64,000 nt of DNA from Nannocystis pusilla (GTDB taxonomy: Bacteria; Myxococcota_A; Polyangia; Nannocystales; Nannocystaceae). Numbering within the stretch: position 1 is the stretch's first letter; every line of letters begins with the position of its first letter. The stretch spans positions 1,165,204 through 1,229,203 of the forward strand of contig NZ_JAPNKE010000002.1 of the NCBI RefSeq assembly GCF_026626665.1, in the 5' to 3' direction. The notes below the pieces were generated by a model. It saw only the letters and a program-made list of their open reading frames with translations, had not been told where the DNA came from and did not search any database. The position numbers were made by a program, and so were the translations under genes. This document shows, piece by piece, positions 8,596 to 63,910 of this stretch.

Positions 8596-8700
8596 TCCGG
8601 GAGCCCGCGTTCGTCCTTCGATGATCCGAAGGGCATGTCCTCGCGGACATGCCCTTCAGACCATGGTCTGCGGGGCATGTCCGAGAGGACATGCCCGAAG
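8596..8700. repeat. Cluster of CATG-centred palindromic hairpins (REP/BIME-like) between convergent genes
   Basis: Reads ccttcgATGATCcgaagg, then GGGCATGTCC-tcgc-GGACATGCCC, ACCATGGTC, then GGGGCATGTCC-gagag-GACATGCCC. These are perfect 10-bp stems with 4-5 nt loops. Confidence 0.65.
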
Positions 8701-22226: not shown

Positions 22227-22292
22227 GCCTGTCCCCGGGGACAGGTGACGGGAGATGTCCTTCGAGACATCTCGGAGGCGGGGAGCCCGTGC
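22227..22292. repeat. Palindrome CTGTCCCCGGGGACAG plus an inverted pair GGAGATGTCCttcgaGACATCTCG
   Basis: Read directly. The 23-mer ctgtccccggggacaggtgacgg is identical to a copy at 20794-20816 inside a CDS. Confidence 0.6.
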
Positions 22293-46626: not shown

Positions 46627-49578
<2,952 letters not shown>

Positions 49579-49584
49579 AGTTGT

Positions 49585-49672
49585 CCTGAGAGACATGCAG
49601 GTTCGGACATGCCCGGACGGGCATGTCGTACGCGACATGCCCGCGAGGACATGTCCTTGAGGCTAGGGCCGG
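49585..49672. repeat. CATG-palindrome cluster between convergent genes
   Basis: gacatgcaggttcGGACATGCCCggacGGGCATGTCgtacgcGACATGCCCgcgagGACATGTCCttgagg. Confidence 0.65.
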
Positions 49673-50713
49673 TTGACGGCGACGGTGATCGAGGAGATCC
49701 CGCTGCCGAGGCCGATGATGTCGGGGCTGCCGTCGCCCTCGAGGTCGGCGACGTGGAGCCCGTCGCCCTCGTTCAGGAGCTGGAGATAGGCGGTCATGTG
49801 CGGGGCGAAGCCCCTGGCCGTCGCCGCGGCGGACCGACACGGGGCCGGTGCCGGCGGTGACGAGGTCGAGGGCGCCGTCGCTGTCGAGGTCCCCGGCGGC
49901 GAGGAGGCGGGCGCCGCAGTGGACCGGGTAACGGGCCGTGAGCGGGAAGTCGCCGCTCTTCTGCAGGAAGACGACGAGCTCGCTGGTCTCGAATTCGGTG
50001 TTGGTGGCGACGCCGGCGAGGTCGCCGAGGCCGTCGCCGTCGAGGTCGGCGACGACGAAGTCGTGGAACCATAGCTCGGCCGGCATGCTCGGGGCGGAGG
50101 TCGTCTGGACGTCGCCCTGGTGGCGGACGAGCATGCCGCTGCCGCCCTGGGTGAACACGAAGTCGTCGGCGCGGCCGTCGCCGTCGAGGGCGCCGAGGAC
50201 GTAGCCGGGCGTGGCCTGCTCGAGGGCCGGGCCGACGCTCTCGGTGAATTCGCCGGTGCCGTCGCCGAGCAGGACGACGAGGCCGTCGAGCGCCTCGGTG
50301 TGGGCGACGGTGATGATGTCGAGGTGGCCGTCTTCGTTCCAGTCGACCGCGTCGAGGGTCATGACGTTGTCGGCGAGGTGGACGACCTGGTCGTCGGCGA
50401 GGCCGCCCTGGCCGTCGAGGAAGAGGACGTGGACGCTGACGCCGTCGACGCCGATCGAGTGGGCGAGGACGTCGAGGACGCCGTCCTCGTCGAAGTCGCC
50501 GCTGGCGCGCACGACGGGCTGGTCGCCGATCGACTGCGGCCACGGCTGCGAGTCCGAGGTCGCCGGCGCGAACAGCTCGGCGCCGAGGGTGCCGTCGGCG
50601 AAGGTCATGAGCAGGTCGGCGCCGTGGAGATCGTCGAGCGGGAGGACGAGGCTCGAGGTGACCGGCTGCGAGCCGAAGCCGAGGGTGCCGAGGATGCACA
50701 GCTCGCCCGCCAC
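49663..50713 (-). CDS. FG-GAP/VCBS repeat (integrin-alpha-like beta-propeller) protein, frameshift at about 49805
   Basis: Repeated DxDxDGxxD calcium-binding loops (DFDEDGVLDV, DWNEDGHLDI, DLDGDGLGDL, DLDSDGALDL). The true C-terminus (...HVADLEGDGSPDIIG...VNRP*) is in the adjacent frame, ending at 49663. The N-terminus probably extends to the ATG at about 50993 via another C-run frameshift, giving a signal peptide plus a Cys-rich segment. Confidence 0.55.
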
Positions 50714-51179
50714 GAACTGACCGTCGAAGCAGGTGGCCTCGGCGGCGAAGCTGTCGACGAGCTCGCAGGTGCCGAGCTCGCCGCCGGTGTCGGTGGGATC
50801 GATGCCGGTGTCGGTGGTGGGTGCGCCCGAGTCGGTGGCCGGTCCGTCGGTGGTGTCGCCGGGTCCCTCGGAGGTGTTGCCGGAGCCGCCGCCGGAGGCG
50901 TGCTCGCAGTCGCCGATGCAGTGCTTGATATCGAGGTCACACGCGGGGAGGAGAGAGGAGGATCGGGAGGGTCGATAGCGGAGGGATACGCATGGTGGCC
51001 TTTCAGCGAGTGAGTGCCTCGGGGCTCGGGGTTCCGTTCGCCGATCTTCGCGCCTTCGCTGCGGCGGTGATCGAGGTGGCCGCTCGCGTCACGGCGGGCT
51101 CGCCGGGGCGAGGTGGCCAGCGTCCCGGCCTCGGCGACGCTGGACGTCGCGCTTCGTCGCTCGGCGCGGCGGTCCTCCC

Positions 51180-51370
51180 GAGCGGCGAGAGTTCGGCGCG
51201 GCAGCAGAGACTCTGTCCGAAGGGACATGTACGGAGGGGCGCGGCGCGGGTGGTCGAGCGATGTTGCGGGCCGAGGCAGATGCCCATGTACGGAGGGGGG
51301 CGCGGCGCGGGTGGTCGAGCGATGAGGCAGATGCCGCGGGAGAGTGAACGGACAGGTCGTAAAGGACAGG
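51180..51370. repeat. Repeat region: 36-bp direct repeat x2 (gtacggagggg(g)cgcggcgcgggtggtcgagcgatg) flanked by GGACATGT / GGACAGGTC units
   Basis: Copies at about 51227-51262 and 51288-51325, plus gaagggacatgtacgg and gaacggacaggtcgtaaaggacaggtc. Confidence 0.55.
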
Positions 51371-51402
51371 TCTGCCGAGACCGGGGGCACCGAGCGACGC
51401 GC

Positions 51403-52605
51403 TCAGGAGCGGCACAGCGCGGACACCCGCGCGGCCAGGGCGGAGGCGGGCCAGCGGGCCAGGAACGCGGCGGCTTCGCGGCGGGCGCGGTCGTGTTCGC
51501 CGAGGCGGCAGCGGGCCTCGATCGCGGCGGCGGCGGTCTCCTGGGCGAACACGCCGGCGGGGAAGCGCCGCTGGTGGCGGGCGACCAGCTCGAGGGTGGT
51601 GCGGTCGTCGGCGGCGAGCAGGGCGGCGCGGATCGACTCGACGAGGGTGAGCTCGGCGGCCAGCGAGGGTTCTTCGGCGCGAGGGATCGAGCGTCGCGCG
51701 GGCGCGGGGGGAGCGGCCGGGGCGGAGTCGGGCGGGATCGGGGTGGCGGCTGCGAGCGCGACCGATTGCGGTTGCGATGGCGACTGCACGGGCGCGGCCT
51801 CGTGGGCCGGGGCGACGACCGACGGTGGCGGCTCGGGCGGTGAAGGGTGGCCGAACGCCAGCACCGCGAAGAGCCCGGCGCCGGCGACCGAGAGGCCGAC
51901 GACCGGGCTGCCGCCGGCGAGCGCGGCCGGGGTCGTGACATGACTCATCGACCATGTCTTTGCGAGCATGTCCGAGACGACAGCCGGATCGCGCGCGGCG
52001 GCCAGGCGCCACGGCGGCGGCCCGGGCGGACCGACCACGACCAGCGCGGCGAGCACGTGGGCGCCCTGGCGCGGCCGGACCCGGCGATCGCGGGCGTCGA
52101 GGCGGCGGACCATGCGGTCGAGCTCGCGGCGAGCGGCGCGCAGGCGCGAGTAGACGGTGTTGAGGTTGACGCCGAGCTCGGCGGCGATCTCGGGGGCCTG
52201 CCACTGCTCGAGCTCGGTCATGACGAAGACGACGGCCTGGTCGCGGTCGAGGCCGTCGAGGAAGCCCTGGAGGATCGCGGCGGCCTCGGCCTGCTCGACG
52301 GGGGCCCGGGCCGCGGGGGCGAGGACGTCGGCCTCGCTCAGGGCGCAGCGGCGCGGCTCCTCGCGCGCGGCGCTGCGCCGGTAACGGCTGGCGACGCGCC
52401 GCGCGATCTCGAACAACCAGGTGCGCAGCGCGGCGCGACCGGCGAACTCGGGCAGGCGGCGGTAGACGACCAGGAAGGTGTCCTGGACGGCGTCGTCGAC
52501 CCGCGCCGGCTCGACGCCGAGGTGCCGGACGGTGCGCCAGACGAAGCCGTAGTTCGCGCGGTAGACGGCGGCGAAGTCGGGGAGGGCTTCCTGGGGGAGC
52601 GGCAC
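51403..52605 (-). CDS. ECF (sigma-70 family) RNA polymerase sigma factor with a fused C-terminal TM / anti-sigma-like extension
   Basis: Region 2 (DAVQDTFLVVYRRL) and region 4 (ELGVNLNTVYSRLRAARREL) lie in the first ~175 aa. With no stop, a TM helix (SPVVGLSVAGAGLFAVLAFG), a Pro-rich linker and a ~90-aa helical domain follow. GTG start. Confidence 0.7.
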   Translation of the reverse strand: MPLPQEALPDFAAVYRANYGFVWRTVRHLGVEPARVDDAVQDTFLVVYRRLPEFAGRAALRTWLFEIARRVASRYRRSAAREEPRRCALSEADVLAPAARAPVEQAEAAAILQGFLDGLDRDQAVVFVMTELEQWQAPEIAAELGVNLNTVYSRLRAARRELDRMVRRLDARDRRVRPRQGAHVLAALVVVGPPGPPPWRLAAARDPAVVSDMLAKTWSMSHVTTPAALAGGSPVVGLSVAGAGLFAVLAFGHPSPPEPPPSVVAPAHEAAPVQSPSQPQSVALAAATPIPPDSAPAAPPAPARRSIPRAEEPSLAAELTLVESIRAALLAADDRTTLELVARHQRRFPAGVFAQETAAAAIEARCRLGEHDRARREAAAFLARWPASALAARVSALCRS

Positions 52606-52629
52606 GATCGGGTCTGTCTCCGCGGGTCA

Positions 52630-54186
52630 GCGATTCCGTGGCCCGAATGCAGGTCGAGGCCGAAAGTGGCGCGCAGGCCCGCGCGGCCGCCGCGGTACAC
52701 CTCTTCGTCGCCGACGGTGAAGATCGGGCGGTTGACGGCCACGAGGCCCTCGACGGCCAGCCACAGGCCGAGCGGGCCGGCGACCCGCCAGCGCAGCGCG
52801 GGGCCGAGGAAGAAGCTGGCCCACGGGGCCCATCGCGGGTTCGGGACGGTGACGTCGCGGGCGACGCCGTGGAGCGCACCGACCTCGAGGCCGGCGCACA
52901 GGAGGACGGCGAGCGCCGGGCGCGGGTGCAGGGTCGGACAGAGCCGCACGACCCCGCCGAGGCGGTCGAAGCGGCCGCCGGGGCGCTCGCTGTCGCCTGG
53001 GAGGATCCGGCCGGGCGCGCCGACGAGGCCGGCCTCGACGCGCAGGCGGGGCAAAGTGACGCCGCCGAACACGCCGACGAGGCCCCCGACGCCGGGCAGG
53101 ACGCCGACGTCGAGGCCGCCCTCGAGGCGGAGGTGGCCGAGCACGCGCGGCGGTGCGACCGGCCGGGGCGTTCGCGCGGCGGAGAATTCGGCTGTCTCTT
53201 CGGACATGTCCTCGGGTGCGAGCGGGCGCGACGGCCCGGCGGGCGGTCGCGGGGGCGCGGGCGAGGCGAGCCGACCGGGGGGATGGGCTGGTCGAAAGGA
53301 CAGGTCGGGAGGGGACGGGAGCGAGGGGGCGCGGGACGGGTCGGACGCGAGGGGGTCAGGCGGGAGGAGCGGTGGGACCGGCCTCGCGGAGGGGTCGGGT
53401 GGCGACGCAGGGGATGTCTGCGAGGACAGGTCGGCGGACGCGGAGGTCGAGGATGTCCGTGGGGACAGGTCGGGGGCCGGGCCGGACGCGGAGGTCGAGG
53501 ATGTCCGTGGGGACAGGTCGGGGGCCGTGCCGGACGCGGAGGTCGAGGATGTCCGTGGGGAAGGCCCGGCGGGGGGAGGGCGTGGATGTTCGTGGGGACA
53601 GGTCGGCGGGCGGAGCCGTACCGGGCAGGGAGGGCGTGGATGTCCGTGGGGACAGGTCGGAGGGGCCCGGCGGCGGGGACGTGGCTGTCCCGGAGGACAG
53701 ATCGGGCGGCCGGGCCGGAGGCGCGGGCGGGACGACGGCGGCCGCGGGCAGACCGCGGGTGACGGCCAGGGGGTCGAGGTGGATGGCGATCAGGAGGGCG
53801 GCGGCGCGTGCGAGCTGGCAGCTCTCGGCGCGGACGGTGCGGCGGTAGTCGCTGCCTCGCCCGCGCAGCGCGAGCCGCAGCTCCCAGGTCGCGCCGGCGC
53901 GCGAGACGAGGCCGCGGGCGACGGCGCGTCCTGCCGCGTCGTCGCCGGTCGGCTGCCGCAGCAGGCCGGCGACCATGTGCAGGACGGCGTCGCCGTCGGG
54001 GCACTCGCCCGGAGCCTGCCAGGTCAGGTCGACGGGCGGCGCGGCGACCGACGGCGCGGCGGACGAGAGGCGAGCGAACACCAGCGCGGCGAGGGCGAGC
54101 AAGCGAGAGTCCTGGCCCCGGTGATCGTGTCCGGGCAGGCGGGGGGCGTCAACTGTCGGCTGGCGTGCGACCGCGTGGACCGGCAT
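52630..54186 (-). CDS. Putative composite surface protein: N-terminal secreted domain, S/T/P-rich tandem-repeat linker and C-terminal OMP-like beta-barrel. The frame is broken inside the repeat array.
   Basis: ORF 53356..54270 carries a signal-like RLLALAALVFARLSSAAP, then a domain and DLSPRTSTPS repeats. ORF ..53207 gives alternating-hydrophobic beta-strands (LVGVFGGVTL, LRWRVAGPLGLWLAVEGLVAV). The repeat translates as PDLSPRTSSTSASG in the downstream frame, so the two halves likely form one gene. The C-terminal end is unclear. Confidence 0.3.
53260..53720. repeat. Tandem repeat array (48-bp unit ggacaggtcgggggccgggccggacgcggaggtcgaggatgtccgtgg, 2 perfect copies plus degenerate copies) inside a coding region
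   Basis: Perfect copies at about 53469-53516 and 53517-53564, flanked by 39-nt and diverged units (ggacaggtcgg..., gatgtccgtgg...). Confidence 0.7.
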
Positions 54187-54344
54187 GCGGGCGGGGCAGG
54201 GCGACGGGTCGCGCGGGCGCGGCCGGGGGCGAGACCGGCCGGACCCTGCGATGCACGGCCGCTTGGACATGCTCGCCGGGGATCGAAGGCCGGGATGATC
54301 GGGTCTTCAGGACAGCCCGATGGCGAGGGCATGGCAGGCGCTGC

Positions 54345-54425
54345 GGCGCGCTGTCCTATCAGACATGTCCTTTTATAATTGTCTGGAAGGACATGTCGGA
54401 GGGAGCATGTCCGAAAGGACCGATA
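54345..54425. repeat. CATG-palindrome cluster with an embedded AT-rich segment (TTTTATAATTG)
   Basis: ctgtcctatcaGACATGTCCttttataattgtctggaaGGACATGTCggagggaGCATGTCCgaaaGGACC. Confidence 0.6.
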
Positions 54426-54426
54426 T

Positions 54427-55424
54427 CTACTTCGCCGGCTTGCGGCCGATCTCGAGGTTGTAGGCGGCGGCGGGGTCGACCGCGCCGGGCTTCAGGAGGC
54501 CGAGGTCGACGAGCTGATCGGCGAGCGTCTTCCAGCGGGCGGGGTCGATCGCGCCGATCGTGCCGCCCTCGGGGGCCGCCAGCGGCTTGAGGGCGGTGGC
54601 GCCCTTGGCCAGGATCTCGGGGCTGAGCTCGGTGTTGCGGGCGCGGATCTCGGCGTTGGCGGCGCTCGGGTCGCGCAGGTACTGCTCCCACCCGCGCAGC
54701 GTCGCGGCGACGACGCGGGCGACCAGCTCGGGGCGGCTCGCCAGCAGCGACTCGGAGGTGACGAGGACGCTGGCGTAGGGGTTGAAGCCGAGGTCGGCGA
54801 CGAGGATGCAGCGGACCTTGGCGCCCTGCGACTCGGCGATGATCGGCTCGCTGAAGACGTAGGCCTGCTGGACGGCCTTGGGGTCGAGCAGGAACGGGGC
54901 GACGCTGCCGCTGTAAGGGACGACCTGGACCGCCTCGGGCCAGCGGTACTCGGCGCGCAGGAAGCTGGCGAACGGCTCGCGCACGCTCAGCTGCACGCTG
55001 CCCGCCTGGAGGTCCTTGAGGTCGGTGATGCCCGAGGCCTCGTGGACCATCATGCAGCGCGGGCTCTTCTGCAGGCCGGGGACGAGCGCGACCACCGGGG
55101 CGCCCTGGGCCCGCGCGAGCAGGATCTCGCTGGCGTCGGCGACGCCGAAATCGACCCGTCCTGCGGCCACCTGCGGCAGGACGGGCGCGTCAGGCCGCCC
55201 GGGACGAGCTCGACGTCGAGGCCCTCTTCCTTGTAGCAGCCGTGGACGAGGGCGGCGAAGTAGCCGCCGTGCTCGACCTCGGGGAACCAGTTGAGGGCGA
55301 TCCGCACCTGCGAGTCCTGCTGGCGGCCGCAGGTGACGAGCACCAAGCCGAGACAGGCGACGAGCAGGCGGACGAGGGCGCCGAACCGCGGGCGCGGCGG
55401 GACCGGTCGGGGCGGAGCGCGCAT
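54427..55424 (-). CDS. ABC transporter substrate-binding lipoprotein (NMT1/SsuA/TauA family), frameshift at about 55195
   Basis: Lipobox LLVACLGLVLVTCG. The N-terminal frame (IALNWFPEVEHGGYF) and the C-terminal frame (VDFGVADASEILLARAQGAPVVAL...) are both SsuA-like. ATG at 55424 confirmed. Confidence 0.65.
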
Positions 55425-55489
55425 GCCGGAAGCGTACACCCGAGCGCCACGGACGCACCAGCGGCCTCGACCGCGTCGCGGAGCGGATC

Positions 55490-55550
55490 CATCGGGTATG
55501 GTGCGGAGGACATGATGAAAGAGCATGTCCTCGGGGACATGTGGCGGGTG
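55490..55550. repeat. CATG-palindrome units
   Basis: ggaGGACATGatgaaagaGCATGTCCtcggGGACATGTggcgg. Confidence 0.55.
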
Positions 55551-55560
55551 GCGGCCGGCG

Positions 55561-55730
55561 GCGGGCAGCGCGGGGCGGAGGCTCGCAGGCTCGCGGCGGG
55601 GCGGAGGCTCGCAGGCTCGCGGCGGGGCGGAGGCTCGCAGGCTCGCGGCGGGGCGGAGGCTCGCAGGCTCGCGCGGGGGCGGAGGCTCGCAGGCTCGCGC
55701 GGGGGCGGAGGCTCGCAGGCTCGCGCGGGG
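55561..55730. repeat. Minisatellite: 26-bp unit (ggggcggaggctcgcaggctcgcggc) x about 6 tandem copies
   Basis: Read directly. Copies 4-6 carry a gcgcgggggcgg variant. Confidence 0.75.
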
Positions 55731-63689: not shown

Positions 63690-63910
63690 GGCACAGGGCC
63701 CGCTCGTCCTCAGCATGAGGCCCGGTCCGACGGCGGACGGTGCGGCATGTCTCATTGGACATGTCATCAAGAACATGCTCGATAGAGCATGCGCTCATGA
63801 GCATGTTCCTCGAGTCATGGCCTGGAGGGCAGGGGCGTCCGGGGCCGGCGCGCCTCATGAGCATGTTCTTCGAGTCAGGGCCGGGAGGGCATGTGCGTCC
63901 GGGGCCCGGC
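63690..63910. repeat. CATG-palindrome cluster plus an about 62-bp direct repeat x2 (ctcatgagcatgttc(c/t)tcgagtca(t/g)ggcc(t/g)ggagggca(g/t)g(g/t)gcgtccggggcc(g/c)ggcgcg)
   Basis: gGCATGTCtcattGGACATGTCatcaaGAACATGCTCgataGAGCATGCgctcatGAGCATGTTC... read directly. Confidence 0.6.

Follow-up and report, generated by a model that had tools for sequence, protein, structure and literature searches.

INTRODUCTION

Cell-surface signaling has so far been defined by TonB-dependent transducers such as FecA of the FecA/FecR/FecI system, a 22-stranded outer membrane beta-barrel with an N-terminal periplasmic domain that is coupled to an extracytoplasmic function (ECF) sigma factor and a single-pass membrane partner. 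In IutY of Pseudomonas putida, sigma factor and anti-sigma factor form one hybrid protein, which is activated by Prc/RseP proteolysis in cell-surface signaling (PMC8999054). Here, we present an analysis of a gene, referred to as X, that lies directly upstream of an ECF sigma factor gene on the minus strand of a 64,000-nt stretch of the Nannocystis pusilla genome (contig NZ_JAPNKE010000002.1, positions 1,165,204 to 1,229,203; G+C content, 72%), which we call the window and to which all positions refer unless another contig is named. The closest relatives of the window are Nannocystis genomes. Myxobacteria encode dozens of ECF sigma factors, the inputs of which are mostly unknown. The best overall explanation of our data, which we consider fairly probable, is that X is one gene, split in the assembly, and that it encodes a secreted protein made up of an N-terminal domain (N-domain), a linker and a C-terminal beta-barrel that acts in envelope signaling together with its sigma partner.

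The locus compares with the described systems as follows. Like a FecA-type transducer, the product of X is predicted to be an outer membrane barrel with an N-terminal periplasmic domain, and genetic coupling to an ECF sigma factor gene was found in 16 of 17 loci, with the single-pass partner fused to the sigma factor in the subfamily of the window and separate in two related loci (L010 and L011). It differs from FecA in having 8 predicted strands instead of 22, in the lack of a plug, a TonB box and an STN domain (Pfam TonB_dep_Rec, Plug and STN gave no match on X), and in that X is the first gene. The partner differs from FecR in that its periplasmic domain is TPR-like and not FecR-like; no transport function is possible. 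IutY-type hybrids (ECF243, ECF48/52/53 and possibly ECF220 of Sorangium) resemble the sigma protein of the window in carrying sigma core, transmembrane helix and periplasmic domain in one chain, but the periplasmic domain of the window protein is unrelated to FecR, and activation by proteolysis would be an analogy only. Many linkers of the X family are of the (EP)n or (PEPE)n type, like the Pro-Glu/Pro-Lys rod of TonB, and as in TonB and TolA the linker lies between an anchor in the membrane and a small globular domain for interaction; in contrast to these rods, the predicted anchor is in the outer and not the inner membrane, the Nannocystis linker is built from Ser/Thr/Pro repeats, and no energy-transduction partner is evident.

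RESULTS

X is a single gene split by indels in the assembly

In the window, X is distributed over two open reading frames (ORFs; 53356-54270 and 52338-53207, minus strand) that are in different frames. Based on three-frame translation, the switch sits within a tandem array in which one frame reads PDLSPRTSSTSASG and another PTDILDLRVRPGPRPV, while the third is also open (PTCPHGHPRPPRP). A preliminary description of this DNA, made from the sequence alone, had reported the first two readings and had taken the two ORFs for one gene with an indel in the repeat, and both points are borne out here. G+C content by codon position indicated strong coding at ~53650-54200 in one phase and at ~52620-53130 in another and was blurred at ~53150-53650. 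Used as a joined query, the two well-coded halves retrieved single proteins of 388-530 amino acids (aa) from Nannocystis and Nannocystaceae, each with both domains, a variable DLSPRTS-type linker and the conserved end ...GLDLQFGPRNR*; the Nannocystis orthologues among them are single ORFs of 388-499 aa. Altogether, intact single ORFs were found in at least nine other genomes or contigs, with the linker always open in the frame that joins both domains. Removal of one C from the array and restoration of one A near the 3' end gave an open frame, free of stops between the halves, for a product of ~491 aa that matches the orthologues end to end, stops at 52627-52629 and aligns over its full length with the single-ORF proteins P0001, P0002, P0003, P0005, P0006 and P0007. 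From the N- to the C-terminus, this product comprises a signal-like segment, the N-domain, a disordered linker and an 8-stranded barrel. We conclude that the two ORFs are one underlying gene that is split mainly by single-base indels.

The preliminary description missed the 3' indel, and it also missed that the frameshifts are errors of the assembly, one proven and one probable. In a DNA alignment with the intact N. pusilla orthologue in L001, the window is without one A at 52648/9 (CTGCAATTC -> CTGCATTC). A short-read contig (L008; Logan assembly of run ERR2215891) matches window positions 53464-50543 with no mismatches in 2,925 nt and differs at three gap columns only, having the A at 52648/9 and CT at 50957. 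Because this otherwise identical contig from the same strain has the A, its absence from the window is an assembly error. Consistently, protein P0025 ends with ...GLDLQFGPRNR.

The frameshift in the array maps to a run of six C residues (C6). The linker follows the frame of the N-domain down to 53577 and that of the C-terminal domain (C-domain) from 53570, and the C6 run sits in a 37-nt repeat spacing, the sole spacing in the array that is not divisible by 3. Compared with L001, the window carries 118 (37 + 81) extra array bases, which is not a multiple of 3. Neither the C5 nor the C6 version of the array junction had an exact match in public genomes. Because the change is one of homopolymer length and two indel errors are proven nearby in the same assembly, the array frameshift is likely an artefact as well. 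Thus, the broken frame of X is largely an artefact of the assembly and probably wholly so.

Frame breaks were also observed in two relatives. In Nannocystis exedens DSM 71 (L007 2848-4600), the frame changes late in the linker, so that the barrel is out of frame with the N-domain; in P0004, which comes from a second assembly of N. pusilla, the entire linker is read in the third frame, with compensating shifts within the N-domain. These breaks may reflect either a recurrent difficulty in sequencing the GC-rich repeat or genuine instability. Since small frame-breaking deletion errors (52648/9 and 50957) are present in the window assembly, other split or truncated ORFs in the window are suspect.

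The start codon of X is likely TTG at 54102, which has AGGA ahead of it as well as a conserved TTGACG-17-CACGAT block; the N-terminal ORF read from this codon is the annotated 248-aa protein OV079_05465 of N. pusilla (P0010). ATG 54186 was rejected as the start, because the codon is not conserved in the orthologue. Of the extent proposed previously (52630-54186), the minus strand stands and the start does not, while the other end presupposes TGA 52627-52629, which is the true stop codon after correction but lies out of the C-domain frame as assembled.

X belongs to a large family without annotation

Word-indexed homology searches retrieved only 27 relatives of X, and an exhaustive profile search then found thousands. 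At E <= 1e-3, 1e-10 and 1e-30, it gave 15,688, 9,002 and 2,046 cluster representatives, respectively; Pro-rich linker columns in the profile may have raised the counts at the weaker end. The best 150 representatives mostly match over their full length; 129 of 147 carry a W-x-A-P-x-x-C-P motif, and the linkers are for the most part Pro/Glu-rich. A search for related loci with alignment A1 gave six genomic and two metagenomic loci. The members sampled are all annotated as "hypothetical protein," and the organism names are only those of Nannocystis, Nannocystaceae and Myxococcales metagenome-assembled genomes (MAGs). At E <= 1, neither half of X matched any Pfam or NCBIfam family, autotransporter models and the OMP_b-brl, OmpA_membrane and Ail_Lom families included, and neither did ten distant members; a profile search against Protein Data Bank (PDB) sequences gave a chance-level match only (E = 0.099). 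From these comparisons, the X family appears to be large, unannotated and, among the sampled members, confined to Myxococcota.

The product of X is predicted to combine a small alpha/beta domain with an OmpA-like barrel

To model the product, AlphaFold2 was given the family alignment headed by the orthologue P0001 (90% identity), and residue numbers are those of P0001. In this model, the N-domain (residues 24-116) has the order beta-alpha-beta-beta-beta-alpha with a predicted local distance difference test score (pLDDT) of ~90-96, the linker (residues 120-285) is disordered, and the C-domain (residues 286-451) is all-beta with a pLDDT of ~96. Modeled alone from the window sequence, the N-domain is a two-layer alpha/beta sandwich (predicted TM-score, 0.71). 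Its best Foldseek match is modest (HPF/YfiA; TM-score, 0.5-0.6), a resemblance at the fold level only, and the fold resembles periplasmic domains for envelope assembly or tethering, e.g., the TolB N-domain, LpoB and LptE.

The C-domain comprises ~165 aa, for which DSSP assigned eight long antiparallel strands, two of them bulged. Foldseek matched it against the PDB with a probability of 1.0 to OmpA, OmpX and NspA (E = 1e-7 to 1e-4). Target TM-scores were 0.72-0.75 for the OmpA transmembrane domain, 0.74 for NspA and 0.71 for OmpX, and the range over these, Ail and the OprF N-domain was 0.62-0.75; in contrast, the autotransporter translocators EspP, Hbp, NalP and EstA scored only 0.16-0.30. The X barrel also shares with 8-stranded barrels its size, a near-C-terminal aromatic residue (LQF) and the alternation of polar and apolar residues in the strands. 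It differs from OmpA-type barrels in the lack of Pfam or NCBIfam similarity, in a GPRNR tail past the terminal Phe and in two invariant barrel cysteines; moreover, the domain order is reversed relative to OmpA and OprF, with the periplasmic domain and linker of X before the barrel. On the model, we assign the C-domain to the OmpA/OmpX-like 8-stranded structural class (150-180 aa). The C-terminal barrel postulated in the preliminary description is thus supported by the predicted fold, and it comes with a large family of homologues.

Family alignments revealed four invariant cysteines, two per domain, with C353 and C367 in the barrel. The N-termini of family members are hydrophobic, some with a classic basic n-region and AxA site (P0009, P0029 and P0137), and the signal-like segment noted previously in X has comparable counterparts among them. 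The C-termini read ...LQF(GPRNR), ...RFP or ...RLP, and the terminal Phe of X is not its last residue. Because the cysteine pairs are invariant and the N-termini hydrophobic across the family, X fits an extracytoplasmic protein.

In 8-stranded barrels, both termini are on the same side of the membrane, which is the periplasmic side in OmpA and OmpX. Because a small even-stranded barrel has both termini in the periplasm, we infer that the linker and the N-domain of X should be periplasmic and not displayed on the surface. The term "passenger," previously used for the N-domain, is therefore wrong for a domain placed in the periplasm.

X is genetically coupled to a membrane-tethered ECF sigma factor

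The gene downstream of X encodes an ECF sigma factor (PF04542, Sigma70_r2, 9.3e-12; PF08281, Sigma70_r4_2, 2.6e-11; TIGR02937, 2e-20). The two genes are co-directional and separated by a 21-nt gap, in which a terminator scan found none. The protein consists of the sigma2/sigma4 core (52081-52605), a transmembrane helix (51850-51906), a Pro-rich periplasmic linker and a C-terminal helical TPR-like domain (51406-51666). It has a single hydrophobic peak (aa 234-252), which is conserved in six orthologues; in the subfamily of the window, the protein has 400-483 aa and the C-terminal helical domain of ~90 aa is conserved.

In 16 of 17 distinct loci, the sigma gene is directly downstream of X, at a distance of a few to ~55 nt or overlapping the X stop codon, in agreement with the neighborhood reported in the preliminary description. 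These 16 loci represent seven Nannocystis species or strains, Paraliomyxa, MAGs and metagenomic contigs with unrelated flanks, and the paralogue L010. In the remaining locus (L018 5001-6068, Myxococcales MAG), a distant member of the family (E = 1.6e-92 to the distant-member profile) lies between the gene for a 248-aa protein and that for leucyl-tRNA synthetase, with no sigma gene within 5 kb. The upstream 248-aa protein was considered as a sigma partner and rejected, as it has no similarity to the partner. Because L018 is without a sigma neighbor, the X family is not strictly tied to sigma factors.

L010 (5134-7830) and L011 (5385-8313) contain a four-gene module of X, an ECF sigma factor of only ~200 aa, an overlapping gene for a protein of ~250 aa with a weakly TPR-like C-terminal domain, and a gene for a protein of ~440-450 aa. 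Because the C-terminal domain of the window sigma protein is homologous to these separate partners (36-40% identity; E = 3e-11 and 6e-6), the window protein unites a sigma factor and its single-pass partner in one chain, and this fusion is a derived state. The fourth protein in L010 and L011 has only a faint VWA-like signal, in place of FG-GAP; otherwise, an FG-GAP repeat protein gene usually follows the sigma gene. In the window, this third gene of the module has two indels: the loss of CT at 50957, which is shown by L008 to be an assembly error, and the loss of GG at 49814. The latter, a 2-nt deletion in a G-run relative to the orthologue and outside L008, gives the ORF 49544-50713 a junk Arg/Pro-rich C-terminus.

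The linker motif corresponds to a dispersed palindrome

Tandem Repeats Finder reported an array at 53435-53723 with a period of 48 nt, 6.2 copies and a score of 263; a repeat search gave seven copies at 53396-53714 with spacings of 39, 48, 48, 37, 54 and 45 nt. The 48-bp array described previously is thus present, while its range (53260-53720) was too wide at the low-coordinate end, the seven copies spanning 53396-53723. As had been expected, repeat number differs between strains and species, and tandem duplication of the 48-nt unit explains the lengths of the orthologues (388-499 aa in Nannocystis; 491 aa for the corrected window copy).

Codon usage in the linker is atypical compared with reference genes: ACA makes up 50% versus 5% of Thr codons, TCC 79% versus 10% of Ser codons and CCA 17% versus 2% of Pro codons. 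Seven copies of the dyad TGTCY-N4-RGACA are read in the linker as GAC-CTG-TCC-nnn-nGG-ACA, i.e., D-L-S-x-x-T. This motif has 33 instances in six genes of different species, and in these Ser is encoded by TCC in 33/33 and Thr by ACA in 29/33, against genome backgrounds of 10% and 5%, respectively, while the loop codons vary; copies of the motif are related by duplication and descent, and these raw counts overstate their independence.

The dyad is not confined to X. It occurs 25 times in the window versus ~0.8 expected, with a spacer of almost always 4 nt, and the related GGACATGTCC occurs 23 times versus 1.6 expected. Intergenic copies often extend to CATGTCC-N4-GGACATG, with stems of 10-11 bp and folding energies of -20 to -21 kcal/mol (z ~ -6); they are mostly 27-95 nt past the 3' ends of genes and are single or paired, the pairs having similar flanks and different loops. 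In L001-L004, the dyad is both intergenic and in the linker, and about half of the dyads outside X fall in the intergenic 14-22% of the sequence; in L005 and L006 (~11 kb each), the linkers of which are Pro/Ala-type, it is in neither. It is also present in a Nannocystaceae MAG. One copy is inside an SNF2-family helicase gene (47009-47022), at the same place in four Nannocystis genomes.

Because TCC and ACA are near-fixed relative to background and the dyad is over-represented in the window, the DLSxxT motif appears from these counts to be a by-product of a genome-wide palindrome, TGTCC-N4-GGACA, that is kept at the nucleotide level. The preliminary description had recognized the repeats and missed this origin of the peptide motif. 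The linker copies are weak 5-bp hairpins; because the whole array folds no better than shuffled sequences (z = -1.2), a role of these copies in RNA structure is unsupported. By its over-representation, stem length, arrangement and position past 3' ends, the dyad resembles repetitive extragenic palindromes (REPs); it differs from them in also lying in frame within a coding linker, where it is kept at synonymous sites, and in having no Rfam family. An Rfam search of 51000-55600 gave no match, and no published description of the dyad was found in a literature search. On this evidence, the dispersed dyad looks REP-like or operator-like.

Conserved elements around the module

Upstream of X, a conserved block contains TTGACG (54152-54147), 17 nt, CACGAT (54129-54124) and AGGA (54113-54110). 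Six aligned sequences, from five Nannocystis species and one Logan assembly, all contain AGTTGACG unchanged. A scan with the strict sigma-70 consensus did not call the block as a promoter (8/12 matches), and it is a candidate promoter by its conservation only. Farther upstream, at 54346-54424, four ACATG blocks with an exact 14-nt period are kept in six aligned sequences (the window and regions of L001, L002, L003, L007 and L009), while the 9-nt spacers vary; in the window, these blocks flank an AT-rich TTTTATAAT core. The conservation suggests an intergenic array that binds a protein or has a structural role. The terminator-like hairpin past the sigma gene (GGTCT-CGGC-AGACC, then TGTCCTTT) has a 5-bp stem and a 4-nt loop, the layout of the dispersed dyad. 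The features are compiled in Table 1.

Table 1. Positions of X, its parts and neighboring features (window numbering unless a contig is named)
Feature	Position	Strand	Basis or remark
Gene X	52627..54102	minus	491 codons after mending of two 1-nt indels; three-frame translation and orthologue alignments
Likely TTG start and hydrophobic signal-like segment, (M)LALAALVFARLSSAAPSVAAP	54037..54102	minus	Translation
N-domain, ~95 aa, with W-x-A-P-x-x-C-P motif and second invariant Cys	53749..54036	minus	
Predicted disordered Ser/Thr/Pro-rich linker, ~200 aa	53139..53748	minus	pLDDT <55 in orthologue model
Tandem array, seven ~48-nt copies	53396..53723	minus	Most copies with TGTCC-N4-GGACA core, read D-L-S-x-x-T
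C6 homopolymer, +1 frameshift in array	53571..53576	minus	C5 puts gene in frame
Predicted C-terminal 8-stranded outer membrane beta-barrel (GHLRLEGG...GLDLQF) and basic tail GPRNR	52627..53138	minus	Model and Foldseek
Missing A	52648..52649	minus	Present in L008 and L001; 1-nt deletion drops ...LQFGPRNR* from C-domain frame
ECF sigma factor fused to single-pass membrane partner	51403..52605	minus	Pfam, NCBIfam, hydrophobicity, homology of partner
Terminator-like hairpin	51369..51382	minus	~20 nt past sigma gene stop
FG-GAP repeat protein gene, third of module	49663..50993	minus	Pfam FG-GAP_3 in orthologues
Conserved upstream block with layout of promoter and ribosome-binding site	54110..54152	minus	Conservation
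14-nt palindromic units, GACATGTCC-N4, around AT-rich core	54346..54424	minus	Directly past stop of NMT1-family gene
Examples of dyad	499-512, 556-569, 8636-8649, 8678-8691, 22230-22269		
Further examples of dyad	49582-49595, 51214-51227, 54352-54393, 55526-55539, 63748-63761		
Dyad in SNF2-family helicase gene of relatives	L001 12957, L002 11513, L003 12401		

DISCUSSION

Here, we analyzed a locus of N. pusilla in which a gene that is broken in the assembly, X, precedes an ECF sigma factor gene. X is probably part of an envelope signaling module and not an autotransporter. We suggest that its barrel would insert into the outer membrane such that its two ends point to the periplasm and that the linker would pay the N-domain out across the periplasm, as a TonB in reverse. 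There, the N-domain would touch the TPR-like domain that the co-transcribed membrane-tethered sigma fusion carries in the periplasm on a Pro-rich stalk of its own. A change in the outer membrane or the envelope would alter this contact and lead to release of the sigma domain, by analogy with the regulated proteolysis of IutY, and duplication of the 48-nt unit would vary linker length between strains. From the architecture and gene order, we infer the physical contact with the sigma protein and the signaling role of X. In a broader and more tentative form, which we consider possible rather than probable, the X family would be a TonB-independent trans-envelope device in which a sensor or adaptor domain hung from a barrel controls a tethered ECF sigma factor via a TPR-like domain and in which the Nannocystis linker is built from, and tuned in length by tandem duplication of, a unit with a REP-like palindrome. 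If so, the linker would be one of the rare instances in which a dispersed DNA element is kept inside a coding sequence and is constant at synonymous sites.

Several observations weigh against this interpretation or parts of it. The count of eight strands rests on DSSP strings and fold matches, not on coordinates. Read from the TTG start, the signal-like segment of X is without a basic n-region. The distant member in L018 has no sigma gene nearby, co-transcription of X with the sigma gene could mean co-regulation only, and the contact between N-domain and sigma protein is a predicted one. With regard to the gene model, L008 begins at 53464 and leaves the C6 site uncovered, and frame breaks in the linker also occur in N. 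exedens and the second N. pusilla assembly; thus, the array frameshift could be real and the instability genuine.

The main functional rival, which we regard as somewhat unlikely, is that X is an outer membrane protein that is only an output of the sigma factor and co-regulated with it, e.g., a structural envelope or peptidoglycan-tethering protein, and not a signal input. ECF operons often hold members of the regulon, and both the L018 locus and the similarity of the N-domain to the TolB N-domain, LpoB and LptE would be in line with such a role. What argues against it is that X comes first and is followed within ~55 nt, or in overlap, by the sigma gene in 16 of the 17 loci, across divergent subfamilies and unrelated flanks, and that X and its sigma partner both have a Pro-rich periplasmic linker and a small conserved periplasmic domain, as interacting trans-envelope partners would need.

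A second alternative concerns the gene itself. If the array frameshift were real, X would be either a pseudogene in decay or a gene subject to phase variation that slippage in the repeats or the C-run has turned off, and the N-terminal fragment and the C-terminal barrel would be unmade or made separately; we consider this unlikely. Besides the position of the C6 site outside the independent contig and the recurrence of frame breaks in the linkers of relatives, it is favored by the comparison with L001, in which, over 13 kb, all frame-breaking indels are in the module while five flanking genes (6.6 kb) are free of indels, and in which the module diverges faster than the flanks (89-94% versus 96-97% identity). 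On the other hand, two other indels within the same 2.9 kb are demonstrably errors, and a one-base change in a homopolymer is a typical error of long-read assemblies. The compensating shifts of P0004 also affect the conserved N-domain and thereby resemble assembly error, six C residues are few for efficient phase variation and runs of this kind are frequent at 72% GC, and both halves of X have strong codon-position GC and at least 90% identity to intact orthologues. We therefore favor an assembly artefact in the array as well.

It is highly improbable that the halves are two separate genes, one for a secreted N-domain protein and one for a barrel starting at the conserved ATG 53207 (MSEETAEF), with the repeats forming a palindrome array between them. 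Only halves are indeed called in the window as assembled and in the annotations available for this genome and N. exedens (P0010, 248 aa; P0027, 194 aa), codon periodicity is blurred in the repeat zone, and the array is built from a palindrome that otherwise occurs between genes and inside other genes; against this, the joint ORFs are intact elsewhere, a barrel starting from MSEETAEF would be without a signal peptide, and in the wider family (>2,000 clusters), the two domains are always part of a single protein. No better placed is the proposal of the preliminary description that X is an autotransporter or inverse autotransporter whose barrel exports the N-domain and repeat linker to the surface, which has in its favor that a C-terminal barrel follows a globular domain and a repetitive linker, an order shared with types Va and Ve and superficially like type Va, and the frequency of Ser/Thr/Pro repeats in surface proteins, and which fails because the predicted barrel is 8-stranded and not 12-stranded, has no pore that passes a polypeptide (as established for OmpA and OmpX), matches OmpA, OmpX, NspA and Ail far better than translocators, has no Pfam autotransporter or outer membrane protein match and, instead of a helix leading into it through the pore, is preceded by 160 disordered residues.

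What stands is an unannotated and very large family in Myxococcota that is unusual in its architecture and strongly linked, in genetic terms, to membrane-tethered ECF sigma factors. For anyone mining this assembly, the single-base indels that split real genes call for caution. Annotation of Myxococcota genomes would benefit from a definition of the X family, for which neither Pfam nor NCBIfam has a model although its members number in the thousands, and the linker motif, as an apparent in-frame translation of a genome-wide palindrome, offers a clean overlap of coding and non-coding constraint. Moreover, a conserved outer membrane partner upstream of a whole class of sigma factors would give a concrete and testable sensor candidate, and it would add a second architecture, a small barrel with a tether, to cell-surface signaling.

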